From a virus (taxonomy: Duplodnaviria; Heunggongvirae; Uroviricota; Caudoviricetes): 22,366 nt of DNA. The notes under the pieces were generated by a model that worked only from the letters and a program-made list of their open reading frames with translations, did not search any database and was not told the DNA's origin. The position numbers and the translations under genes were made by a program. The DNA lies in IMG/VR virus record IMGVR_UViG_2861079508_000002. One strand, written 5' to 3'. Shown piece by piece: positions 2,234 to 22,366 of the stretch (the first letter of the stretch is position 1; every line of letters begins with the position of its first letter).

Positions 2234-2927
2234 GTTCACCTCCTTTGATTATGGTTAAATAGTCGAAATTTTCACCACTTCCCTTGTGGATATATTTACA
2301 TATAAAAGGTAACTAGTCACTAACCAACACAAATCTTTTTGAAGACAGATGGGGGGTGTTGAACGGTTTTTAAATGATTTCTTTGATTTTTAACAGCAAT
2401 AAGGAGCATTTTTAATGAAATTAGACGTTGATAATAACTTTTTGAGCAATCTTTACATATCATGGTAGCCTTCTATGCTGTTTTTCCAACTAAAAGATTG
2501 GCACATTTATCCGCTGGTAGTGGCGTTTTTTCGCCGCCAGCGCCTCTCTGGTTCCATTCCTTACATCTGTTCAAATTCAGCAACCCTTGCCGCGATCTTG
2601 CCGTTATCGAGAAGCTCTTTCGCTTTTCGGTTAATACTATCGGTCTTCATATTGCCAGCAGCATACGCCATCCGATAATTTCGATGCTACGCGCGCGTAC
2701 TTGTCGCAAAATATCAGGCAAAGGCCAGATTCAGAAAGTCGTGATAACCACCAGCACAACATGAGAGGTCATGTAACGCGATTTATCACACCAGATACAT
2801 GTGATTGGTGTACCCGCATAAAACATCGTCATAGCGCGTCCTGTGCGCATATACGCCGATAATCAACACATCACCACCACTCTGTCTTATGTAGAGAACA
2901 GTTTTATGGTGCTCCCCGCCATCGTGT

Positions 2928-2991
2928 GCGTACTGGTCGGACGCAGTTGCAAAAAATTTTGCAACTGATACCCCTCGCGCGCGTACTGGTC
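2928..2991. repeat. 11-bp inverted repeat CAGTTGCAAAA-aa-TTTTGCAACTG flanked by direct repeats GCGTACTGGTC
   Basis: Inverted repeat at 2944-2967; GCGTACTGGTC at 2928-2938 and 2981-2991; related GCGTACTTGTC at 2695-2705 and GCGTACTGTAA at 3061-3071. No convincing ORF with an SD covers the region. Confidence 0.5.
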
Positions 2992-3182
2992 ACGAAATTG
3001 GTGTTTTGCTGTGGCAGTGATATCAGAAAAATCTTCCTGTTTCACATAAAGCGGATATGCGCGTACTGTAACGACCCCATCAACGGGGATCGGATTTGAA
3101 ATCCCGACCCAAGCTATGTACCAAATGCCATGTCTTGGATATATGATGATTGCCATTCTAAACAACGCTAAAGGGGGTTGGT

Positions 3183-3797
3183 GTGAGCAGAAAAGATACT
3201 AAAGAATTGCTAACTATCTGCATGGTGTACTTTTCAATTTATTTTTGTGCATACATGATAGTCCCAGACGAGTTTGAACATGGCAGTATTATTTATTCCA
3301 TAACATTCTATTTTTTAGAGCTAACACCAATTTTGGCTATCCTTTTGGCAATACATATTTATTTTTCCTTAAAAAAAGAATCGACTAATTGGGAGAAGGT
3401 ATGGAGAGACAGAGGATTTCTAACATCACCTAAAGATGATGCATATGAGAGTGATTTTTCTGACTTTATAACAAACTACTACTCCAGCGAACAATTCAAA
3501 AATAGACTGTCTGATGTTTGGGAAACAGCAATGTATTCCATAGGGATTACATTATTGATACTTACTGGTATTGCTCAATATGTTTTTAACATTGACTTAT
3601 CATTAAATCCTGAAAATTTAATATCGCCATTGATTTTTGGTGAGATATTGATCTTCTCATTCGGAATTTTCTTGAGTGTTGTTCTCTGCTCATTATGCAA
3701 ACTACTGACTAACAGGTATCCAGGTGAAGCAAGGAGAGCAAGAAAGGCAAATCCATATTATCTTTTATTTCCTAATGGAGACAGCAGAGATATCTAA
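3183..3797 (+). CDS. AT-rich predicted four-TM inner-membrane protein (204 aa, GTG start)
   Basis: GGGGG SD 5 nt upstream of GTG at 3183. Four hydrophobic segments (about residues 10-28, 36-61, 116-135, 148-176). Markedly lower GC than flanking DNA; convergent with the ejection-like operon. Confidence 0.55.
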   Translation: MSRKDTKELLTICMVYFSIYFCAYMIVPDEFEHGSIIYSITFYFLELTPILAILLAIHIYFSLKKESTNWEKVWRDRGFLTSPKDDAYESDFSDFITNYYSSEQFKNRLSDVWETAMYSIGITLLILTGIAQYVFNIDLSLNPENLISPLIFGEILIFSFGIFLSVVLCSLCKLLTNRYPGEARRARKANPYYLLFPNGDSRDI

Positions 3798-3816: not shown

Positions 3817-4159
3817 TTATTGAGCTTCTTTTTGTGATGCCTGTGCGACTCTGGTGAGCGATTGTGTGACCGTACTGATCGCTCTGTCATATGCTGTGCT
3901 ACCTTTTGGCGTATTTGCCAGACGTAACAAGGCATTTCGTATAACAGGGCTTTCGTATGCCTTCGCTGCTCCGCCTACGGCACCAGCAGCAGGAACAACA
4001 AACGCAGCCGTTTTTAGCATCCCCGCTAATACTGCTGCGTTTATGATGCCACCACCAACTAACAATCCATAAAGCTGCTGACCATTTAAGTTTTGAACGT
4101 TCGCTTTTGCCGCGTGTCTTGTATCGTTGAGGTATTTAATAACGCCGTCCAGTTCCTTT
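3817..4159 (-). pseudogene. 3' fragment (about 111 codons) of the gene split by the IS66-family insertion
   Basis: ORF-track ORF 3817..4191 runs into the IS; its first 11 codons are IS-derived. Frame is continuous with 6686..8456 once the IS and one TSD copy are removed. Confidence 0.75.
4152..4159. repeat. 8-bp target-site duplication GTTCCTTT, left copy
   Basis: Identical octamer abuts both IS ends (4152-4159 and 6686-6693). Confidence 0.8.
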
Positions 4160-4244
4160 GTAAGCGTAAACCGACCGCCGTATGTAGCCATTAGACAAGA
4201 ATTGGTAACTTAGACGCCCATCTGACACAGACGGACATCTAAGT

Positions 4245-4664
4245 ATGGAATTACAGGACTGGCGAAAAGAACCTCGTAAAAAGTATTCGAATGAATTCAA
4301 ACTTCGTATGGTTGAACTGGCATCACAACCCGGTGCTTGTGTGGCCCAGATTGCTCGAGAAAATGGCGTCAATGATAATGTTATTTTCAAATGGCTCAGA
4401 CTCTGGCAAAACGAAGGGCGTATATCGCGGCGTCTTCCGGTAACAACCTCTTCTGACACTGGCGTTGAATTATTACCAGTGGAGATAACGCCGGATGAGC
4501 CGAAAGAACCGGTGGCTGCTCTTACTCCGTCTTTATCCACCCAGACTACTGTCAGTGCCAGCTCCTGCAAGGTGGAGTTCCGTCACGGTAACATGACGCT
4601 GGAAAATCCTTCACCAGAGCTGCTCACTGTGTTGATCCGTGAACTGACCGGGAGGGGACGATGA
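4245..4664 (+). CDS. tnpA: IS66-family accessory protein TnpA (Orf1), 139 aa
   Basis: First ORF of the IS; overlaps the next ORF by 4 nt; size and position typical of IS66 orf1. Confidence 0.85.
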   Translation: MELQDWRKEPRKKYSNEFKLRMVELASQPGACVAQIARENGVNDNVIFKWLRLWQNEGRISRRLPVTTSSDTGVELLPVEITPDEPKEPVAALTPSLSTQTTVSASSCKVEFRHGNMTLENPSPELLTVLIRELTGRGR

Positions 4665-5011
4665 TCTCACTCCCGTCAGGCACCCGCATCTGGCTCGTTG
4701 CCGGCGTTACCGATATGCGTAAATCCTTCAACGGACTGGGAGAACAGGTACAGCATGTGCTGAATGATAATCCCTTCTCCGGTCACCTGTTCATCTTCCG
4801 TGGCCGACGGGGTGACACGATTAAAATCCTGTGGGCTGATGCTGATGGTCTGTGCCTGTTCACCAAACGCCTGGAGGAAGGCCAGTTTATCTGGCCTGCG
4901 GTACGTGACGGCAAGGTATCCATTACCCGTTCGCAACTGGCAATGCTCCTCGATAAGCTGGACTGGCGTCAGCCAAAAACATCCCGTCTTAACGCACTGA
5001 CAATGTTGTAA
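4661..5011 (+). CDS. tnpB: IS66-family TnpB (Orf2), 116 aa
   Basis: Second ORF, ATGA overlap with orf1; size and sequence character typical of IS66 Orf2 (recalled). Confidence 0.85.
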   Translation: MISLPSGTRIWLVAGVTDMRKSFNGLGEQVQHVLNDNPFSGHLFIFRGRRGDTIKILWADADGLCLFTKRLEEGQFIWPAVRDGKVSITRSQLAMLLDKLDWRQPKTSRLNALTML

Positions 5012-5041
5012 AAATGTCATGGCCGGATTATAAAAACGGTC

Positions 5042-6655
5042 ATGAGTCAGAAATACCTCATTCGGATCACTGAGCTGGAAAGGTTGCTCTCTGAGCAGGC
5101 TGAAGCCCTCCGTCAGAAAGACCAACAACTGAGTCTGGTTGAAGAGACGGAGGTCTTCCTGCGTTCTGCGCTGGCACGTGCCGAAGAAAAGATCGAAGAA
5201 GATGAGCGGGAAATAGAGCATCTGCGGGCCCAGGTGGAAAAACTGCGCCGGATGCTGTTCGGTACCCGTTCTGAAAAACTGCGTCGTGAAGTTGAACAGG
5301 CTGAAGCCCTGCTGAAACGACGCGAACAGAACAGCGATCGTTACAGCGGGCGTGAGGATGACCCGCAGGTTCCCCGCCAGTTGCGACAGTCGCGTCATCG
5401 TCGCCCGTTACCGGCGCATCTGCCCCGCGAAATAAACCGCCTGGAGCCAGAAGAAAGCTGTTGCCCGGAGTGTGGTGGTGAGCTGGATTATCTGGGGGAA
5501 GTCAGCGCAGAACAACTGGAACTGGTGAGCAGCGCCCTGAAAGTGATCCGCACAGAACGGGTAAAAAAAGCCTGTACAAAATGTGACTGCATCGTTGAAG
5601 CACCGGCACCGTCCCGTCCGATAGCGCGTGGTGTCGCGGGCCCGGGGTTACTTGCCCGCGTGTTAACGGGAAAATACTGCGAACACCTGCCACTGTATCG
5701 TCAGAGTGAAATCTTTGCCCGTCAGGGTGTCGAACTGAGCCGTGCGTTACTCTCCAACTGGGTTGACGCGTGCTGCCAGTTAATGACGCCGCTGAATGAT
5801 GCCCTGTACCGTTACGTGATGAACACCCGCAAGGTTCACACTGATGACACACCAGTAAAAGTGCTGGCACCGGGCAGGAAGAAGGCGAAAACAGGATATA
5901 TCTGGACGTATGTCCGGGATGACAGGAATGCCGGTTCGCCAGAGCCTCCGGCGGTCTGGTTCGCCTACTCACCGGATCATCAGGGGAAACATCCGGAGCA
6001 GCACCTTCGTCCCTTCCGGGGTATCCTGCAGGCAGATGCGTTTAATGGCTACGATCGGCTGTTCAGTGCCGGACGTGAAGGCGGCGCGTTGACGGAAGCA
6101 GGATGCTGGGCTCATGCGCGACGTAAAATCCACGATGTATATATCAGTACCAAAAGCGCGACAGCGGAAGAAGCCCTGAAACTAATCGGTGAACTGTACG
6201 CCATCGAGCACGATATACGCGGGTTACCGGTGTCTGAACGCCTGGCGGTCAGGCAAATGCAGAGTAGACCGCTCCTGACTTCCCTGTATAAGCTGATGCA
6301 GGAGAAAGAACACACGTTATCGAAGAAATGTCGTCTGGGAGATGCGTTCCGGTATATCCGGAAGCACTGGGCTGCGTTGTGCAACTTCTGTGATGATGGC
6401 CTGGCTGAGGTAGATAATAATGCCGCAGAAAGAGCGCTTCGTGCAGTCTGTCTCGGGAAGAAAAATTATGTGTTCTTCGGCAGCGATCACGGTGGCGAGC
6501 GTGGAGCACTGTTGTACGGGCTGATCGGCACCTGCCGACTGAACGGTATAGATCCGGAAGCGTATCTGCGCCATATCCTGGGTGTACTGCCGGAATGGCC
6601 TTCCAACCGTGTTGACGAGCTCCTGCCATGGAACGTAGCACTCACCAATAAATAA
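5042..6655 (+). CDS. tnpC: IS66-family transposase TnpC (Orf3), 537 aa
   Basis: Large third ORF with N-terminal coiled-coil-like region, Cys cluster CPECGG...CTKCDC and a long catalytic domain; ends 30 nt before the right IR. Confidence 0.9.
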   Translation: MSQKYLIRITELERLLSEQAEALRQKDQQLSLVEETEVFLRSALARAEEKIEEDEREIEHLRAQVEKLRRMLFGTRSEKLRREVEQAEALLKRREQNSDRYSGREDDPQVPRQLRQSRHRRPLPAHLPREINRLEPEESCCPECGGELDYLGEVSAEQLELVSSALKVIRTERVKKACTKCDCIVEAPAPSRPIARGVAGPGLLARVLTGKYCEHLPLYRQSEIFARQGVELSRALLSNWVDACCQLMTPLNDALYRYVMNTRKVHTDDTPVKVLAPGRKKAKTGYIWTYVRDDRNAGSPEPPAVWFAYSPDHQGKHPEQHLRPFRGILQADAFNGYDRLFSAGREGGALTEAGCWAHARRKIHDVYISTKSATAEEALKLIGELYAIEHDIRGLPVSERLAVRQMQSRPLLTSLYKLMQEKEHTLSKKCRLGDAFRYIRKHWAALCNFCDDGLAEVDNNAAERALRAVCLGKKNYVFFGSDHGGERGALLYGLIGTCRLNGIDPEAYLRHILGVLPEWPSNRVDELLPWNVALTNK

Positions 6656-6685
6656 GTATCAATACGGCACTCCGTTAACGCTTAC

Positions 6686-6693
6686 GTTCCTTT
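6686..6693. repeat. 8-bp target-site duplication GTTCCTTT, right copy
   Basis: Identical to 4152-4159. Confidence 0.8.
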
Positions 6694-8456
6694 CCATGTA
6701 CGCCTTTAAAGAAAGTTGCTGATTGCTTCCTGTTCCGGTGTAACGCATTAATAAACTTCTCAACACTGATATTTCCAGACGGATCAGTCGCCTTATCTAC
6801 AGCATTCTGAACTATGGCTGCTCGTGCGTTTTGCCTACCATTGTCATCCAGAAGCCTGTAAAGCTGAGAACGTTCTGATGGGCTTTGGCTAAAAACGAGT
6901 TTTGTTACATCCTCAGGCGTGGCCTTGCCGCTGGCTATTGCCTTTTGAACGCGCGTTCTTCCCATCATGTCATTGAATTTAGACCATGAGCGATCAACCC
7001 TTGCCATATTAATGGCTTCGTCTGCTCCAAGATTTTTGGCTACGGCTTTTTTCATATCCGCCGTATATGCCTTATAGATAATATCGCTGGCTTTCTGGAG
7101 CGTATCTTTATCAACAGTGTCAGATGACGCCATAAATCGCTTTCGAAGATCGGTTCTGTTTTCCCTCGCCAGACGCAGGTCATTTGGTCCGCTGGTGATA
7201 TCGTCTTTAAATTGCTGCAAGACTTTTACCGCGGCTCTATCCTGAGATTTACCCGGGCGGCTTAACACGGCAATCTGATTGTCGATAGCTTTTACCGTGT
7301 TTGAGAGATCGACAGGGGTATCCCCCATAGCGTCAATTATGCGGTTATATCGCTTTCCTGCTGCCTCAATGAATTTTTGTTGCCCTTTAGTCGCAGATTC
7401 ATAAAGCTGTTTATCAGAAATGCCACCCAGACCATCGCTAAATGTTCTGACTAAATTTTCTCGTGCTTGTTGTTGATTCAGCCGATTCTTACCGGTTCCA
7501 AAAAAAGGAACTCTTTCGCCTAATGTCTGAGCCTGACTCTGCATAAAGGTTTTATCTTTCAGCATGTCACTGGTCATTAACGGCAGATTTCTTTCCGATG
7601 CAAAGTCGACAGCAGCCTTTGCTTCAGGCGACATATCACCACGAACAGCCCTCGAAACCGCACTCGCTGTATTTTCCAGCCCCTTACCAATACCACCAAT
7701 GCCAGCAGAAATTACCGTTTGTAACGGATCAATATCTTCTCCACCAGCGAGGCTGGTGGCTCCCTGTAGTGCTAAATCTGTAGCTGCTGATTTCCCTATG
7801 GCCCCCAGCACCGTTCCGGCCCTGCCCGCTGGTGTAAACGCCAGCGCATTAGCCAGAAACGATGCCACGTCTTGCGGCGATAAACCCGGCTTGTTCAGAG
7901 CATAATCACCGGATGGCAGGGAAACGATAGTGTTACCCTTCTCATCCTGCCTTAATTTCGCTCCCATGCTCTGAAGAATCTTTTCCTGAGATGCGTCAGA
8001 GCCGAAAAGTTGAGACCATCGAGCTTTTAGAGCATCCATGCTGAGTGAGGTTAACTCTGGGGCAAGGTCGACATTTTGCAGTCTCTCCATCTCTGGAGTC
8101 ATTCGGCTTTCGCCTGTTATAGCATCGCGCATCGCAGCCCCAAGGCTGGCTCCCTGTTCTGCTGAACGCTCAAGCCCCTCTCTTTGCTGAGTAGCTAACT
8201 TTGCATACCCTGACGCAAGAGAATTATCAGATGATGTATGTTGAATATTTTGAGTTGCTGATTGGGATCGGTCTATTTCATTCGTTGATGGTAGTGGATA
8301 GGCAGCATAAAAAGCCTGCTTAGCCTGCTCTACACTTTCTCCGGCTTGCGGGGCCACGACTTCATTGAAGTATTGCTCCTGAGCCTGCGCTTTTTGTTCT
8401 GGTGCTAACGCCTGATACTGTGGAGAGGCGATAACATCTTTCCATGCTTTAGCCAT
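6686..8456 (-). pseudogene. 5' fragment (about 590 codons) of the IS-disrupted gene; large Gln/Ala-rich virion/ejection-like protein (P22 gp16-position)
   Basis: ORF-track ORF 6675..8456; its last 3 codons and stop are IS sequence. Start overlaps the upstream stop as TAATG at 8454-8458. Confidence 0.7.
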
Positions 8457-9877
8457 TAATCACCCCATAGTGAAGAAAAGTTACTGCTGGCTGCTGGCTG
8501 TGATACCTGCTCAGATTGCGGCAATGTCTGCGACGAAGAAGAAGTTCCTCTGTCAACTGCTAAAATAACCCGCAAAGCATCATAAGCTCGACCAGAAGCA
8601 GCTTTCAGCGAATTGAACTGGTTTTCCATCTTCCGGCGCTTGGTATCAATGGTTTTTGTGGAGTCGCCAGGCTGAGGGAAATACATTTGATAATATTTTG
8701 ACATTTCAGCAGGTACGATAGCTGCCCCTGTTTCCTGACGGAGTATTGCCATTATTGCGTCATTAGCATTAACAACGTATTGCTGCTCTGTTGGGCTGAG
8801 CGTTAAGTTAGCCAGCGTCCCATTACCCAAAGCATTATTAATGACCGCCACTCGCTGTGGGCTAAGCTGGTCTTTCAGTGTATCTATTGAATCAAGAGCA
8901 TCCCTAACCCTGTATGCAAATCCAGCAGCTTTTTTAGCCCCTTCTGGCGACTTTTCCATGATCTTTTGGGCTGTTGGCAAAGCTATTGGACGAAATCCAT
9001 CTCCAGATATTGGCTGGTTTAGTTTTCCCTGCTCTTCACTTCCGTCTGTGTAGTATTTTGTGACAGTGCCATCATCGTTTTCTCTAACACTCATTAATTT
9101 TTTGGCGTTTGTATTAATTCCAGCCGCTGCCGCAAATGCCGCCGCCCCCTCTGGATCCGCCTTTAACATTTGAGCGTACTGATTGTAATTCTGCATTGCT
9201 GCTGTTGGTGCATATGCTGACGTTAACGCATTTGCTCGGCTAATATCCTGCCCTCTCGCCTGAAGTGCTTCGCCAGCCTGATTGCTGCGGATTGTCTCTG
9301 CCAACTTGCCACGCTCAATATCCCGACCTTCCATTTGATCTTTGATATCGAAATACTTCTCATGACCGAGAGAAAACAGTGCCATACTACCAGCAAGCCG
9401 CTGGAACCCCTGTGGATCATTAACATGCATTTCGGCAACAGACTCAGGAGAAATTCCCAAGCGACGCATTTCATCTTCGTTATCTGCTATGAATTTTCCA
9501 AATGCCCCAGTTCCGAGCGAAGATGCGATTTGAGCACTAGTCGCAAGATGACCAATAGAATTTCTCTGGTCGTCATCAATAAAGCCCATCCCTTTCTGAA
9601 CGCTTTCAAATTCTTCTGGATACTCAGAAATAAGACTGCGCATTTTGTTTCTGTCTCCAGACTCAAAAGCCCCGGCATATGCTTTCTGAAACTCTGCTTT
9701 ACGCTGTTGTTGACGTGCCTGCTGATTAATCTCAGCAACGCCTCTTAGCCCCTGTAGCGCCATTAAACCTACGTTTGGCTGCTGCTGATACTGCACAGGC
9801 TGAGGAACGGAAGAACGAGGAGCATTATCATTTTGCGGTGCCATGCTAGGCAGCCCGCCAAGTTGCCATGTCGCCAT
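8456..9877 (-). CDS. 473-aa protein, candidate P22 gp20-like ejection protein
   Basis: Translationally coupled at both ends (TAATG). Size matches P22 gp20 (471 aa, from memory); Gln/Ala-rich. No profile search done. Confidence 0.5.
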   Translation of the reverse strand: MATWQLGGLPSMAPQNDNAPRSSVPQPVQYQQQPNVGLMALQGLRGVAEINQQARQQQRKAEFQKAYAGAFESGDRNKMRSLISEYPEEFESVQKGMGFIDDDQRNSIGHLATSAQIASSLGTGAFGKFIADNEDEMRRLGISPESVAEMHVNDPQGFQRLAGSMALFSLGHEKYFDIKDQMEGRDIERGKLAETIRSNQAGEALQARGQDISRANALTSAYAPTAAMQNYNQYAQMLKADPEGAAAFAAAAGINTNAKKLMSVRENDDGTVTKYYTDGSEEQGKLNQPISGDGFRPIALPTAQKIMEKSPEGAKKAAGFAYRVRDALDSIDTLKDQLSPQRVAVINNALGNGTLANLTLSPTEQQYVVNANDAIMAILRQETGAAIVPAEMSKYYQMYFPQPGDSTKTIDTKRRKMENQFNSLKAASGRAYDALRVILAVDRGTSSSSQTLPQSEQVSQPAASSNFSSLWGD

Positions 9878-10554
9878 TAGAATCCAAGCCCCCCAACAAG
9901 ACCAATAAGCCCACCACCAATAGCGCCGGCCGCAGTTCCTATTCCAGGAACAACGGAACCAAGTTGCGCACCCGCTAAAGCGCCTGATGCTGCCCCACCA
10001 ATACCACGCGCAAGACTGGATGGCTGCTGCGCCTGACCTGCACGAATAGCGCCAAGCCCCTGCAAGAGTTGTCCGGTATTATTGGCGTAGTTTTGCCCTG
10101 CCGTTGCCTGCCCTGATGCCGCATTCATCCCGACATTTAGCAGGTTTCCATAATTTTGCATTTGCCCACTAAGCCAATTGTTATAAAGCATGGGCGCAAT
10201 GGAAGATAACTGGTTACTGGTAGCTGTTGAGCCAAGCCCCCCGGTAGCTTCTGCTGAGACAAGGTTCTGATAACGGGCCTGATCTGCCTGTGTTTTATAT
10301 AAACCAGAACCAAAGAAATCATTCGCGGCTTTATTCTGCCCTTCCAGAGTCATCAGTCCTTGTAGTTGTTGTAAAGCAGGCAATCCGACTTCTGCATACG
10401 GCTTGAGATTATTCATCACCGTATTCCACTGCTCGCGCTGCAAATCAATTGCCTGCTGCTGGGCCTTCGCCTGAGCTTTAGAGGCACCACCATCACCGCC
10501 TTTTTCGTATACGGCACGATTGAGATGTTTATGAGCTATATGGGTAATTAACAT
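9877..10554 (-). CDS. 225-aa Gly/Ala/Gln-rich protein with glycine-zipper-like C-terminus, candidate P22 gp7-like ejection protein
   Basis: Start overlaps the upstream stop (ATGTTAA). N-terminal YEKGGDGGASK and C-terminal GIGGAASGALAGAQLGSVVPGIGTAAGAIGGGLIGLVGGLGF; size close to P22 gp7 (229 aa, recalled). Confidence 0.5.
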   Translation of the reverse strand: MLITHIAHKHLNRAVYEKGGDGGASKAQAKAQQQAIDLQREQWNTVMNNLKPYAEVGLPALQQLQGLMTLEGQNKAANDFFGSGLYKTQADQARYQNLVSAEATGGLGSTATSNQLSSIAPMLYNNWLSGQMQNYGNLLNVGMNAASGQATAGQNYANNTGQLLQGLGAIRAGQAQQPSSLARGIGGAASGALAGAQLGSVVPGIGTAAGAIGGGLIGLVGGLGF

Positions 10555-11009
10555 TCGCTGAATTCCTTATATTGTTGCCGAGTTAACTGATAAAGCGTTA
10601 CGCCGACGGGTTTACCACATCTGATATAAGCATCATCAAGGTGACCAACACGGGTAGCGCCAAGCAAACGGATAATTGCCCGTCCGTATTTCGTGGTGTC
10701 AGGAACCATGGTAATGCTGTTAAGGAATGGTGAGTTTTCGAGAAGCCATTTGCAGAATAATCGATGCCCTTGCAGTGCATATTCACCACGGAATCCGGGG
10801 TCGTACACCGCATGGCATTCAACAACGCTATGCCAGAAGTTACGCACTTCATGAACGCCAGCCAGCACCAATCCTTCGTAGATGCCGAGATATACCGCAT
10901 CAGGCTTGATGTAGTACGTGTGCCCCGGCTCAACAATATTTTCGGTATTGGCAGGCTCGTTAAGAAAGGCCTGTAATCGCACCGGGTTATCAATAAATTT
11001 TAGTTCCAT
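10548..11009 (-). CDS. 153-aa protein, first large gene of the operon (P22 gene-14 position)
   Basis: ATG at 11007-11009 with GGATGG about 10 nt upstream; stop overlaps the next start. Assignment by synteny only. Confidence 0.45.
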   Translation of the reverse strand: MELKFIDNPVRLQAFLNEPANTENIVEPGHTYYIKPDAVYLGIYEGLVLAGVHEVRNFWHSVVECHAVYDPGFRGEYALQGHRLFCKWLLENSPFLNSITMVPDTTKYGRAIIRLLGATRVGHLDDAYIRCGKPVGVTLYQLTRQQYKEFSEC

Positions 11010-11026
11010 GCGGTGCCATCCATTTT

Positions 11027-11188
11027 CACATACAGCCTGCCAGCGCCTTATCTATTAACCCTCGTGCAATTTCATGCAGAGTTGGCGCTACTCCAATTCC
11101 TGATTTTTTACGCTGCTCTTCCTGAATTTTCTTTATCGCTTCCATTTGCTTCTCACTTATCAATACCGGCTTTACTGAAATAGCCATA
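11027..11188 (-). CDS. 53-aa small protein, possible RHH/Arc-type regulator (below the ORF-track size cutoff)
   Basis: My own translation MAISVKPVLISEKQMEAIKKIQEEQRKKSGIGVAPTLHEIARGLIDKALAGCM; GGGGG SD 4-5 nt upstream of the ATG; TGA lies 16 nt before the next ATG. Minus-strand TATAAT at 11221-11226. Confidence 0.35.
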
Positions 11189-11280
11189 ACGCCCCCTTAG
11201 AACTGTATAAAACAACAGTTATTATAGTTTCACAAATCGCAATATTCATCATCGTAATTGCAAAATATGAAACAAATAGC

Positions 11281-11315
11281 ACAAAAAAATGCCACCGCTC
11301 AGTAGCTGGTGGCAT
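11281..11315 (-). terminator. Rho-independent terminator (8-bp stem ATGCCACC/GGTGGCAT, 11-nt loop, T6-7 run on the minus strand)
   Basis: Plus strand AAAAAAATGCCACCGCTCAGTAGCTGGTGGCAT; hairpin then T-run when read on the minus strand. Separates the primase island from the ejection-like operon promoter. Confidence 0.55.
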
Positions 11316-11681
11316 CGTTCTGTGTGTCAGGTTTTGACAGGTTTTTTATGGACTCTAAAAACTATATTTATGGTATCGCATTACTCTTCACGGCAGGCGC
11401 TTTTCAGTTCTGCCCTTGCTTCTGGCTCCATTGGTAATTTGATTCGCGATCAGCTATGCGGATGGTTTGCTGAACAGGCATAACAACATCTCAGAGGCTA
11501 TTTTTTGAACTACGAAAATTTCGTAGGTCTCTCCTTCAAAAACGTCACGCCCTTGTACACTGGATTTTACAAAAGTCTCGTAAAACTCTTTCCTGTTCTG
11601 GGCTATGTGCCAAACCGCAGCGAATACCTCCGTCTGCCAGATGAGCAAAACATACCTTATAAAGAAAATCGCTGTTTTTGC

Positions 11682-11786
11682 TGTACCACCTGTACCACCA
11701 TGTCACAAACCCTTGTGTGGCGCGGCCTGTAGGTGGTACAGGTGGGTAAAAATGACCTCTCCCCACCTGTACAGACCTGTACCATT
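11682..11786. repeat. iteron-like cluster B: direct and inverted copies of core GGTGGTACAGGT
   Basis: ACCTGTACCACC at 11688-11699 (partial TGTACCACC at 11682-11690), GGTGGTACAGGT at 11732-11743, partial inverted copies near 11765-11772 and 11776-11785. Immediately after the stop of gene 11790..12527. Confidence 0.6.
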
Positions 11787-12801: not shown

Positions 12802-12907
12802 AATGGTATAGGTGGTACAGGTCTGGTATAGGTAAGATATTGACCTGTACCACTATAACGCACTGTTTTTAATACTGAATTAGCAAAATGGTATAGGTGG
12901 TACAGGT
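12802..12907. repeat. iteron-like cluster A: exact 21-mer AATGGTATAGGTGGTACAGGT twice plus an inverted copy between
   Basis: 21-mer at 12802-12822 and 12887-12907; partial copy 12825-12834; inverted ACCTGTACCACTATA at 12843-12857. Between the primase stop (12937) and gene start (12760). Confidence 0.65.
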
Positions 12908-19296: not shown

Positions 19297-19728
19297 TTAG
19301 GCGGCGGTGAGATTGTCCGGGTATAGATTGAGAATGTCGGCAATTTCCTGCTGAGAAAGTCCGTTGTGATCATTTATGTTCGCAAGATGGTTAACATGAG
19401 TGATCACTTTCAGAACATCACCACGGCAGGAGAAACGGTAGCGAAGGTGTGTTCCGATACCATCAGGATTCTTTTCGTCGATACGCTCCAGAGTGATTCC
19501 AAGCTGGCGTTCTAACTCTGTTGCATAGTTACGACCAGAAGACAGACGGCAGTAGCGAAGAATGTCATTTTCTGTCCATCCCTCTATACCAGTACGCAGC
19601 ATATAGACTCTGGCACGATGCTTTTTCGGTGTGCGCTTTGGTGCTTGAAGGGATTTTGTCAGGGGCGTAACATCAGATACGCGAATATCTGAATTAGCCG
19701 CCTGTAATGGGCGGTTTTTCTTTTCCAT
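19297..19728 (-). CDS. 143-aa hypothetical protein, possibly DNA-binding
   Basis: ATG overlaps the alpA-like stop (ATGA); AAGGTGG SD. Basic N-terminus. Confidence 0.5.
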   Translation of the reverse strand: MEKKNRPLQAANSDIRVSDVTPLTKSLQAPKRTPKKHRARVYMLRTGIEGWTENDILRYCRLSSGRNYATELERQLGITLERIDEKNPDGIGTHLRYRFSCRGDVLKVITHVNHLANINDHNGLSQQEIADILNLYPDNLTAA

Positions 19729-19931
19729 CAGGCCACCTTCCCGCGGCGTTCTGCCAGCCAGTTGTGAATCTCAACCGCATCAAACGCAGTTATTTTTTCT
19801 CCCAGCTTTACCGGACGTGGTAGTGAACCGTTTCTTACTTTACGGTCGATGGTGGATACACTAACGCCCAGCAATTCAGCCAGGCGGAAGCGTCTGATAT
19901 AGCCTTTTGTAGGAATAGTGTCGGTGTTCAT
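19728..19931 (-). CDS. alpA: AlpA/Vis-family HTH regulator (excisionase-like), 67 aa
   Basis: Short protein with RFRLAELLGVSVSTIDRKVRNGSLPRPVKLGEKITAFDAVEIHNWL, matching the AlpA-type motif; canonical position near a P4-type integrase. Confidence 0.7.
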   Translation of the reverse strand: MNTDTIPTKGYIRRFRLAELLGVSVSTIDRKVRNGSLPRPVKLGEKITAFDAVEIHNWLAERRGKVA

Positions 19932-21106: not shown

Positions 21107-22366
21107 TTAGTTCGCCCTTCTGAGAGGCGTTACGTTGTAGTCTTTTCCGCTTTCCAGTGCCACCAGCAGATCAGCCCACTGTGCCAGTGCTGCTTTACGC
21201 TCATCAAAATACTGATGGCGGTTATAAATCCCCTCTACGCCCTTAATGCGATGATTGAGGCATCGTTCCGCCACGACAGGATCAACACCCAACGCTGCTA
21301 AATGAGTACGTGCGGTGCGTCGGAAGTCGTGAATCGTGAAATTAGGCACATCCGGCATTTCGGCGCGAACCTTAGCCAGTGCTACGGGCAAAGTGCTTTC
21401 CTGAATATGTGGGATCATTCTGTTTTGCATCTTCCTGGCTGGAAGCACCCATGCGCTATTACATGAAAAGGTGTGTAGCTCTCTCAACCATTCAACGGCT
21501 GGGGAAGGTAGAGGTATATCAATAGGGTCTCCGTTTTTGCTGCGTTCTTCCGGCAAATGCCATACCGCACCATCTAAATCAAACTCTTCCCATCGTGCGG
21601 CGCATAACTCCATCTTACGAACGCATAGTGCCAGCAATAGCTTAAATGTCAGTTCGTTCTGGCGGCTGAATCCTTTTGCGGTGCGCATAGCCTCGAATAG
21701 CCTGATAAGCTCATCGCGAGTTAGCCAACGGTCGCGGGAAACCTCTTTACCACCAGCATCAGATACTTCAAACGCTGAACAAGGGTTTATCTCCAGAGCG
21801 TGGCGTTTTATCCCGTAGTCAAAGATACGGCGTGTCCAGCGTAATACATCTGTTGCTATCGTTGGTGCTCCTCGGTCAACGATACCTTTCAACATGTCGT
21901 CAATGTGGCGTGGCTTAACGTCCTCTACCTTCATATGCCCAATGCAGGGGTTAATATCCTTATCAATTCTCCGGCGAAGGATATCGGGATGTTTCCATCT
22001 CGGAAGTATCTGGCGCTCGAAGTATTCGGAGGCCAGATCTGAAACACGCATGGCGTTTTTCTCAGCCTCCATTTTTGCCAGTGCTTCAGCTTTTCGTTCC
22101 TGTTTCTCTGCTGCTACGTCATAGCCAAGAGCAACTCTGGCTGACAGCTCTTTTGCTGTTTCTCTGGCTTTTGATAGTGACAGTTCGGAGTAAGAGCCTA
22201 TAACCATAGCCCGCTGCTTTCCTGCGAGCTTATAGCGGAATCGCCAGAACGGGGCTGTGTAGTTTTTGGGGTAGCAAATATAAAGGCCGTTGCCGTCTGC
22301 CTTGCCATCAAATCTGTCTCCCGCCTTTATCCATGCGCGGATCTGCATATCTGTGAGTTTTGGCAT
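21107..22366 (-). CDS. int: P4-type tyrosine integrase (419 aa), start codon at the window edge
   Basis: N-terminal MPKLTDMQIRAWIKAG...GNGLYI...FWRFRYKLAGKQR typical of P4-family arm-binding domain; C-terminal catalytic motifs HDFRRTARTHL and GIYNRHQY. Promoter and att site lie beyond the window. Confidence 0.9.
   Translation of the reverse strand: MPKLTDMQIRAWIKAGDRFDGKADGNGLYICYPKNYTAPFWRFRYKLAGKQRAMVIGSYSELSLSKARETAKELSARVALGYDVAAEKQERKAEALAKMEAEKNAMRVSDLASEYFERQILPRWKHPDILRRRIDKDINPCIGHMKVEDVKPRHIDDMLKGIVDRGAPTIATDVLRWTRRIFDYGIKRHALEINPCSAFEVSDAGGKEVSRDRWLTRDELIRLFEAMRTAKGFSRQNELTFKLLLALCVRKMELCAARWEEFDLDGAVWHLPEERSKNGDPIDIPLPSPAVEWLRELHTFSCNSAWVLPARKMQNRMIPHIQESTLPVALAKVRAEMPDVPNFTIHDFRRTARTHLAALGVDPVVAERCLNHRIKGVEGIYNRHQYFDERKAALAQWADLLVALESGKDYNVTPLRRAN

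Follow-up and report, generated by a model that had tools for sequence, protein, structure and literature searches.

Why should a mobile element that has no capsid, tail, or terminase of its own carry the genes for the proteins through which P22-like phages eject their DNA? This question is raised by the 22,366-nt DNA stretch of IMG/VR virus record IMGVR_UViG_2861079508_000002 (hereafter, at its full length, the window), in which a set of minus-strand genes resembles the 14-7-20-16 ejection block of P22. The original prediction for this locus, made from the DNA alone, had set two explanations side by side, a decayed P22-like prophage fused to a satellite and an island that kept only DNA-injection proteins. 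Satellites are known to target the induction of the helper, the specificity of packaging, the size of the capsid, or late transcription, and we know of no satellite strategy at the ejection step. As detailed below, the block belongs to a phage-inducible chromosomal island (PICI), and we consider it reasonably probable (roughly 0.6) that it is a late "hijack" operon of an EcCIMP1-type PICI, through which the satellite would load its own ejection proteins into helper capsids.

Identity of the ejection gene block

The block consists of the following genes, the last of which is found in two pieces:

11026-11187, minus strand: p53, first gene of the operon, 53 aa, satellite-specific
10548-11009, minus strand: gp14-like protein, 153 aa (DUF2824; PHROG 651 "head morphogenesis")
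9877-10554, minus strand: gp7-type ejection protein, 225 aa
8456-9877, minus strand: gp20-type ejection protein (periplasmic conduit), 473 aa
6686-8456, minus strand: gp16-type ejection protein, codons 1-590, cut by an IS66 element
3817-4159, minus strand: displaced C-terminal piece of gp16, codons 591-701, including the hydrophobic segment LYGLLVGGGIINAAVLAGMLKTAAFVVPAAGAVGGAA

The predicted resemblance to P22 is borne out by Pfam or PHROG matches for all four phage-type proteins, which fall into the gp14, gp7, gp20, and gp16 families of P22 and are encoded in the same order. The gp14-like protein matches DUF2824 (PF11039; 4e-62) and phrog_651 (3e-67), the gp7-type protein P22_gp7 (PF25688; 7e-73), the gp20-type protein Inj_translocase (PF16928; 5e-58) and, over its full length, phrog_917 (4e-112), and the gp16-type protein phrog_770 "DNA transfer protein" (2e-125). 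Pfam and NCBIfam scans gave no match for gp16 or p53; for the 701-aa protein encoded at the same position in the sampled islands, whose gene shares 97.9–99.1% nucleotide identity with that of the window, PF26808 (Phage_P22_gp16) is recorded. The uninterrupted 701-aa protein and gp16 of ST64T-type phages can be aligned over the full length of both (31% identity), and gp16 of phage N7 shares 67% identity with it. The gp14-like protein is 85% identical to gp14 of the P22-like phage Kapi1, 24% to P22 gp14, and 97% to its counterpart in the island EcCIMP1, while the gp7-type protein shares 56% identity with P22 gp7 and 99% with the EcCIMP1 copy. The block thus is a genuine P22-type DNA-ejection gene set.

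The genes had been described as five that are joined by overlapping junctions, which holds for the last three junctions, namely a 7-nt overlap (ATGTTAA) between gp14 and gp7 and 1-nt overlaps (TAATG) at gp7/gp20 and gp20/gp16; p53 and gp14, however, do not overlap and are parted by 16 nt. The island shares with P22 (Lederbergvirus) the protein families, their order and sizes, and the overlapping junctions, and the synteny goes further than originally claimed, as a sieA homolog follows gene 16 in convergent orientation. In contrast to P22, the island has no gene 26, 10, 4, or coat cluster upstream of the block and no tailspike gene downstream. Its block begins with a non-phage 53-aa gene and has its own promoter, whereas the P22 block is part of an antitermination-driven late operon, and its proteins are only 24–56% identical to those of P22 and at most 53–85% identical to those of any sequenced phage.

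Within the window, gp16 is interrupted by an insertion sequence (IS):

4160-6677, plus strand: IS66-family element (Pfam matches; boundaries by comparison with the identical IS-free island L001)
4245-4664, plus strand: tnpA of the IS66 element (Pfam)
4661-5011, plus strand: tnpB of the IS66 element (Pfam)
5042-6655, plus strand: tnpC of the IS66 element (Pfam)

The element is flanked by an 8-bp target duplication, GTTCCTTT, at 4152-4159 and 6678-6685. It splits gp16 after codon 590 and severs the last 111 codons, including the hydrophobic segment; the open reading frame (ORF) present in the window (6675-8456) encodes 593 aa, of which the final three codons are foreign. The two pieces cover adjoining stretches of phrog_770 (3-555 and 552-667 of 668). 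The predicted size of about 701 aa fits precisely, but only where the gene is uninterrupted, as in L001 with its 701-codon ORF. Thus, not all ejection genes of the window are intact, but gp16 is so in identical IS-free islands and in most relatives. Since IS66 strips gp16 of its last 111 residues, the ejection module of this particular copy is probably crippled. The insertion also raises the length of the island from about 20.2 to about 22.7 kb.

RefSeq labels the gp16 gene of L001 (NZ_AP045773, 12107-13922, AC6I3H_RS25555) a pseudogene "missing C-terminus." In fact, the ORF extends as far as 11817, with matches to phage gp16 profiles in its C-terminal region, and the pseudogene call is an annotation artefact. 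An intact 701-aa gp16 should not be counted as a pseudogene, nor should such loci be scored as defective P22-like prophages.

The island and its relation to EcCIMP1

The window matches Escherichia coli chromosomes between dinD and yicC and lies wholly inside an island. Compared with the empty site of strain SMS-3-5, this island is an insertion of 20,176 bp next to the yicC 3' end. Because the whole window is inside this island and core genes flank it, no morphogenetic genes are hidden just outside. A tblastn search of the window with 16 P22 proteins retrieved only gp7, gp20, and gp16, and no match was obtained for terminase, portal, scaffold, coat, gp4, gp10, gp26, or tailspike. The flanking morphogenetic genes of a P22-like prophage are missing here, whereas the genuine prophages found with the gp7 query (L004-L014) do have them. 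The absence of head, tail, and packaging genes had been recognized correctly and is no edge effect, as dinD and yicC flank the element and the site is empty in other strains. The block had also been placed beside a satellite island, separated from it by a terminator and iterons. Both of these elements are real, but the block lies inside the island and not adjacent to it.

The backbone starts with the two genes by which PICIs are recognized, one for an integrase at the end of the island and, after it, one for a regulator of the AlpA family:

21107-22366: integrase, int (Arm-DNA-bind_3, Phage_int_M, Phage_integrase)
19728-19931: alpA (PF05930)

Further island genes encode an AntA/B antirepressor, an Ash-family protein, and a 784-aa primase (Zn_Ribbon_Prim, Toprim_3, and DUF5906) with iterons just downstream. 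The element has the form expected of a PICI, a discrete site-specific insertion of about 10–20 kb without capsid, tail, terminase, or lysis genes, although the ejection proteins are still virion components.

The closest characterized relative is EcCIMP1 from E. coli MP1, a PICI of 19,963 bp (Pick, Stadel and Raivio, ISME J 2025, PMC11773190). EcCIMP1 does not excise unless the P22-like phage Kapi1 is present, and it depends on its own alpA and int; Kapi1 transduces it at low frequency (about 5e3 particles per ml), and Kapi1 titers after induction are equal with and without EcCIMP1 (PMC11773190). It also contributes to superinfection immunity against Kapi1, and no known defense system was found in it (PMC11773190). 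Both islands have the gene order int, alpA, antA, ash, primase, p53, DUF2824, gp7, gp20, gp16, envelope protein, and perC, and are similar in size (19,963 bp vs. about 20.2 kb). Protein identities reach 100% for p53, 97% for gp14, and 99% for gp7, the backbone genes int, alpA, antA, ash, primase, and perC are 96–100% identical, and antA and p143 share 98% and 96.5% DNA identity, respectively. Differences concern the integrase and its site (tRNA-Thr in EcCIMP1, the yicC 3' end here), the primase (DUF927, 918 aa vs. DUF5906, 784 aa), the gp20 and gp16 alleles (439 and 906 aa with a lytic transglycosylase domain vs. 473 and 701 aa), the envelope protein (a 232-aa lipoprotein vs. a SieA homolog), and the IS66 in gp16, which is found only here. 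By these comparisons the island is a member of the published EcCIMP1-like PICI family. Helper-dependent excision, replication, and packaging are experimentally established for EcCIMP1 with Kapi1; the present island, with its IS-disrupted gp16 and its length of about 22.7 kb, is a candidate for the same behavior.

P4-like satellites similarly combine an integrase, an AlpA-type regulator, and a large primase (zinc ribbon, Toprim, P4-type C-terminal region), but depend on a P2-like myovirus helper, whereas the helper type here is a P22-like podovirus. Psu, Delta, and Sid had no Pfam or PHROG match among the 26 larger island ORFs scanned. Within this set of ORFs, the island thus does not show the features of a P4-like satellite, Psu, Delta, and Sid together with a P2-like helper.

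Conservation, alleles, and selection

Of 5426 complete E. coli genomes, 503 (~9%) contain the marker region of the family (p53 and the spacer upstream of it), and a protein identical to p53 is recorded for 22,141 assembly blocks. Twenty-two islands were sampled, 16 from E. coli, one from Leclercia, three from Citrobacter, and two from Serratia. In every one of them p53 is followed by gp20 and gp16, in most cases together with gp14 and gp7, and the E. coli islands occupy several integration sites and have differing integrases and primases. Related islands of four genera thus carry the block throughout the sample. The shorter version, in which only p53, gp20, and gp16 are found, occurs in some E. 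coli islands and in both Serratia islands; examples of this three-gene operon (p53/p57, gp20, gp16) are L020 (7505-9149), L022 (5526-9149), and L033/L034 (10001-14357). Two pairs of gp20/gp16 alleles, 473/701 and 439/906 aa, always co-vary in ten p53-anchored E. coli contexts, the 906-aa allele of gp16 being the one with the lytic transglycosylase domain.

Selection was estimated from the ratio of non-synonymous to synonymous substitution rates (dN/dS) by the pairwise Nei–Gojobori method, in which the pairs are not independent. Within the E. coli islands the values were 0.07 for gp14, 0.07 for gp7, 0.26 for gp20, and 0.16 for gp16, compared to 0.23 for antA and 0.30 for p143 of the backbone. 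Between EcCIMP1 and the Leclercia island, where dS is at least 1, all five operon genes had values of 0.03–0.08 (p53, 0.03). By these estimates the ejection block is under purifying selection; by its presence in all sampled islands it is a core module of the family.

Against a set of 50,697 phage genomes, the best full-length relative of gp20 was only 53% identical (APSE phages), the best match of gp7 reached 70% over 60% of its length, and gp16 did not exceed 67% identity (phage N7). Given this distance from sequenced phages, the genes form satellite lineages of long residence. In a scan of contigs for gp7, the matches listed comprised at least 14 loci, among them one island (Leclercia) and 11 ordinary or decaying P22-like prophages; two loci (L015 and L016) gave no usable match.

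These data bear on the first of the two original explanations and on its wider form, in which the block is an inert remnant of a P22-like prophage that recombined with a satellite or decayed beside it. The gene order is indeed identical to that of the P22 late region including sieA, gp16 of the window carries an IS, and short patches with 86–95% DNA identity to P22-like phages exist. However, the ORFs are intact in most islands, dN/dS lies between 0.03 and 0.26, all islands sampled, from four genera and with several attachment sites, contain the same arrangement, and the operon has a dedicated conserved promoter and a first gene without a match in 50,697 phage genomes. Moreover, no other prophage debris was detected in the window with the 16 P22 proteins, and the alleles are distant from those of phages. 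We therefore reject a decayed prophage, which appears extremely improbable. The other original explanation, an island that kept only DNA-injection proteins, is supported instead, and describes a trait of the whole EcCIMP1-like PICI family.

Promoter region and first gene of the operon

Upstream of p53 lies a region with the following features:

11291-11324, minus strand: intrinsic terminator, GCCACC...GGTGGC stem and T-run, closing the replication module and insulating the ejection operon
11227-11272, minus strand: 46-nt operator-like palindrome TTTCAT-TTTTGCAAT-N13-ATTGCG-TTTGTGAAA over the -35 region (from the E. coli/Leclercia alignment)
11221-11226, minus strand: TATAAT -10 hexamer, invariant, without a good -35 hexamer
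11201-11220, minus strand: LexA/SOS-box-like palindrome AACTGTTGTTTTATACAGTT (CTGT-N8-ACAG), located after the -10 hexamer and before the ribosome-binding site

The terminator is conserved in the E. coli islands; that of the Leclercia island has a different stem with the same GGTGGC-T run. The long-palindrome architecture recurs in Citrobacter and Serratia. A simple sigma-70 scan found no full consensus promoter, and the p53 promoter is therefore probably factor-dependent. LexA boxes of E. coli follow the pattern CTGT-N8-ACAG. This core occurs a single time in the window (11203-11218), where it overlaps the core promoter, and its arms are invariant in the E. coli, Leclercia, Citrobacter, and Serratia islands while the spacer varies. 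Furthermore, AACTGTTGTTTTATACAGTT agrees at 17 of 20 positions with the palindrome upstream of the neighboring SOS gene dinD. From this we infer that the operon may be under SOS control. In Klebsiella michiganensis, the spacing of the LexA-like palindrome is one base shorter (CTG-N9-CAG).

The first gene, p53, had no match in the 50,697 phage genomes but has homologs in Citrobacter, Serratia, Klebsiella, and Leclercia, and may encode a small DNA-binding regulator. It had been labeled ribbon-helix-helix (RHH)-like, which could not be confirmed. The protein had no Pfam match at an E value of 1 or below, neither a sequence nor a profile match in the PDB, hhalign probabilities below 1% against P22 Arc and Mnt, and no Foldseek match of its AlphaFold2 (AF2) model. 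This model (pLDDT 75) consists of an extended N-terminus and helices at 12-29 and 37-52, a topology compatible with an RHH monomer, and the label stays a guess.

In K. michiganensis, p53 homologs with 70–77% identity lead operons with other cargo. The first type (L035/L036, 10001-13800) encodes a 605-aa phrog_7694 protein with injection-transglycosylase and tape-measure-like matches and a small-terminase-like protein, the second (L037/L038, 10001-16222) a baseplate-hub-like protein, a Terminase_2 small terminase, and DUF2280. The p53-headed operon therefore appears to be the slot for helper exploitation in this family, and its variation suggests that the slot content follows the helper type.

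A similar position is occupied in staphylococcal PICIs by operon I of the Staphylococcus aureus pathogenicity islands (SaPIs), a packaging module under LexA control according to PMC5052747, which cites Ubeda et al. (2007). Like the ejection operon it is a separate transcription unit downstream of the primase/origin module, it has an SOS operator (predicted in our case), and its products act on the helper virion (PMC5052747), as those of the island would. However, the cargo of SaPI operon I serves as small terminase, in capsid-size redirection, and in interference with late transcription, whereas that of the island comprises ejection proteins, without any terminase or capsid-remodeling gene.

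The position of the operon raises the possibility that its products aid packaging. Pick et al. noted the "DNA transfer" and DUF2824 similarities of EcCIMP1 in one paragraph and suggested that such proteins help to package the island into helper capsids (PMC11773190). In line with this, the operon sits where other PICIs have their packaging module, PHROG assigns "head morphogenesis" labels to gp14 and part of gp16, and the Klebsiella relatives encode small terminases in the same operon. However, P22 mutants in genes 7, 16, or 20 still fill with DNA and are defective in delivery (PMC10461980); thus these proteins are not packaging factors. As the E. coli islands also encode no terminase-like protein, we reject this reading and regard a packaging role as very unlikely.

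The SieA homolog and the envelope protein slot

Convergent to gp16, the island encodes a protein that in P22-like phages is connected to ejection:

3183-3797, plus strand: SieA-family inner-membrane protein, 204 aa, four transmembrane segments predicted, in the same convergent arrangement with gene 16 that P22 has

SieA proteins share a cytoplasmic (F)nRYPnEA motif and are encoded just after gene 16 (PMC10461980). The island protein matches phrog_7745 "SieA-like" (2e-4), aligns with P22 SieA (29% identity over 108 aa; E 2e-7) and with the experimentally tested SieA of HS1 (33% over 118 aa; E 1e-9), and contains the conserved motif as NRYPGEA, both motif and position being as described in PMC10461980. 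It is thus a SieA homolog with putative exclusion activity. As sieA was reported in P22-like prophages only (Leavitt et al., PMC10461980), its context in a satellite is new.

The slot after gp16 (L002, L003, L019-L025) contains varying envelope proteins among the islands. Alternatives to SieA are multi-pass proteins of 129–131 aa, a secreted 145-aa protein, and lipoproteins such as the 232-aa protein of EcCIMP1. Several of these proteins begin alike, with the N-terminus MIAILNNAKGRVGV, suggesting that cassettes are exchanged behind a constant start.

The superinfection immunity against Kapi1 to which EcCIMP1 contributes, although no known defense system was found in this island, could be taken to mean that the ejection proteins themselves defend the resident cell, blocking P22-like phages by occupation or distortion of the envelope sites at which conduits are assembled. 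That the module adjoins the variable envelope protein slot, including the SieA homolog, would agree with such a role. On the other hand, the SieA homolog or other slot proteins are simpler candidates for this immunity, and the envelope slot is the simplest one for the effect seen with EcCIMP1. The terminator-insulated and probably LexA-repressed promoter furthermore argues for silence of the operon in uninduced cells, and three proteins made in the cytoplasm, none with a signal peptide, would need a route to the envelope from within the cell. A defensive function of the ejection proteins in the resident cell therefore seems quite improbable to us.

A possible role in DNA delivery

How, then, could ejection proteins serve a satellite that is packaged by another phage? 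P22 virions that lack gp7, gp16, or gp20 assemble and fill with DNA but fail at its delivery (Leavitt et al., PMC10461980). Highly divergent foreign ejection proteins assemble and function in P22; gp16 and gp20 require their cognate partner, while gp7 is interchangeable (PMC10461980). SieA blocks the conduit formed by gp20 and gp16, and escape from it maps to their C-terminal regions or to the HK620 set (PMC10461980). The islands mirror these genetics, as their minimal module is gp20 plus gp16, the alleles of these two co-vary, and gp7 and gp14 are optional.

The following scenario can be drawn from these data. The satellite, having no capsid, tail, or terminase, would be mobilized by P22-like (Lederbergvirus) helpers. 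Its terminator-insulated and regulated promoter with the LexA-box-like operator would probably respond to the SOS signal by which the helper prophage, too, is induced, and the operon would then yield p53, a gp14-like factor for assembly, and three ejection proteins (gp7, gp20, and gp16). These proteins would enter procapsids built by the helper and, expelled after adsorption, might form the trans-envelope conduit through which the packaged island DNA reaches the next cell. Since gp20 has to be matched by its cognate gp16, and SieA-type exclusion acts on both, an own pair would free the satellite from the alleles of its helper, and perhaps allow entry into cells that exclude ordinary P22-like phages. 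This independence would constitute the selective advantage of loading helper capsids. The adjacent sieA homolog, in turn, might bar incoming phages.

The same requirement for cognate partners would also permit a use of the proteins as a weapon of interference. Satellite gp20 and gp16 might mix with the non-cognate helper proteins, so that conduits fail and helper progeny are poisoned. P22 particles with only a foreign gp16 or only a foreign gp20 are indeed assembled but non-infectious (PMC10461980), gp20 and gp16 of EcCIMP1 are just 24–26% identical to those of its helper Kapi1, and interference with the helper is common among PICIs (PMC5052747). However, Kapi1 titers are unchanged by EcCIMP1 (PMC11773190), poisoned capsids would disable the particles of the satellite as well, and the full cognate set of gp7, gp20, gp16, and gp14 is kept intact, which is unnecessary for a dominant-negative effect. 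We thus consider interference as the function of the module unlikely.

Several points nevertheless weigh against the loading of helper capsids by the satellite. Both the presence of the island ejection proteins in virions and their need for transfer are deductions, and the LexA box is predicted from its pattern and conservation. Transduction of EcCIMP1 by Kapi1 is very inefficient, and hence the module is not sufficient for efficient transfer with that helper. As ejection proteins enter procapsids before the DNA, particles filled by helper and satellite would be equipped alike, and the benefit would not be particle-specific. P22 and HS1 SieA excluded hybrids with four very different sets of ejection proteins and only the HK620 set escaped (PMC10461980), so that with four of five divergent sets excluded, allele diversity alone is no guarantee of evasion. 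The dN/dS values could partly reflect selection on the phage side if alleles are exchanged by recombination, and the DNA patches resembling P22-like phages are a fact to be set beside this. Finally, gp16 was disrupted independently in three of the sampled islands, by the IS66 of the window, by an IS1203 (4770-5983) in L019 (strain MDR_56), and by a 1-nt frameshift in L027 (12732-14836). The remaining ejection genes of these islands are intact, and the repeated disruption may be due to target size alone or to occasional counter-selection.

A more far-reaching version, which we put forward only tentatively and think more doubtful than the loading of helper capsids as such, holds that satellites of podoviruses hijack DNA delivery in addition to packaging or capsid size. 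An own, SOS-induced ejectosome (cognate gp20 and gp16, gp7 and gp14 being optional) would be loaded so that the particles can cross envelopes that exclude the helper and other P22-like phages (e.g., those of SieA lysogens), the SieA-type protein of the island would bar competitors in a lock-and-key fashion, and the delivery cargo of the Klebsiella operons would hint at a general strategy.

Further features of the island

Downstream of the primase, two clusters of iteron-like repeats bracket small ORFs and a 245-aa ORF:

11680-11785: iteron cluster, GGTACAGG/CCTGTACC
12814-12906: second iteron cluster

The octamer GGTACAGG has seven matches in the window compared to 0.33 expected, one of them an isolated copy inside IS66. 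The clusters probably belong to the replication origin of the island.

Imperfect direct repeats of 24 bp (ATTATGTACACCyyTATGTACACG) lie close beyond either end of the window, at 7914-7937 and 27890-27913 of L001. They were considered as attachment site and rejected, because comparison with the empty site puts the true junctions further out. The repeats lie about 70 and 110 bp inside the two island ends and may be arm-type sites of the integrase.

The accessory end of the island (363-2239) encodes a PerC-family regulator (363-650), an ImmA/IrrE M78 peptidase (1751-2239), and two small ORFs. The EcCIMP1 homolog of the PerC-family regulator is reported to repress the enterocyte effacement locus (LEE). 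PADLOC identified no known defense system except for a capP/RmrA-like match of the M78 peptidase. At or beyond this end, other islands contain Abi, Fic, RnlAB, GmrSD/HEPN, or SLFN genes, and the accessory end may be a hotspot for defense cargo.

A conserved non-coding block of about 250 nt (about 2880-3170) contains, at 3015-3036 on the minus strand, the candidate site GAAGATTTTTCTGATATCACTG. A search for the P22 pac site yielded matches at no more than 16 of 22 positions, and this site is one of them. The 17 E. coli island sequences compared do not differ from each other here, regardless of the neighboring genes, and Citrobacter islands have related copies (a tandem pair in L039, a single one in L041). 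Also within this block are three copies of the repeat CAGTACGC and 12 nt that match the small terminase gene of Kapi1 exactly (E 0.07). With 16 of 22 positions and a 12-nt match of this E value, a pac site could not be called, and the block may, as a weakly held suggestion from its conservation, be a packaging or regulatory site. Two IS-free copies of the island amount to about 40 kb and thus to approximately one P22-like genome (Kapi1, 39.4 kb; P22, 41.7 kb). A size constraint for headful packaging as a dimer would be speculation.

Implications for satellite biology

In the literature searched, no paper other than that on EcCIMP1 ties satellites to ejection proteins. This literature also does not contain the recognition of the 14-7-20-16-sieA module as complete, the finding that it is conserved and selected across the family, a modularity of two or four genes in keeping with P22 genetics, or the predicted SOS-box promoter. 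If the ejection proteins of the island are used, they represent a new point of helper exploitation, and would determine which cells the satellite enters, including cells protected by superinfection exclusion. This bears on the spread of the virulence regulators (PerC/ANR) and defense genes that travel aboard these islands. The element is ordinary as such, but it raises the testable question of whether satellites act at DNA ejection, and with EcCIMP1 and Kapi1 as an established experimental pair and the mature genetics of P22 ejection, this question is directly accessible to experiment.

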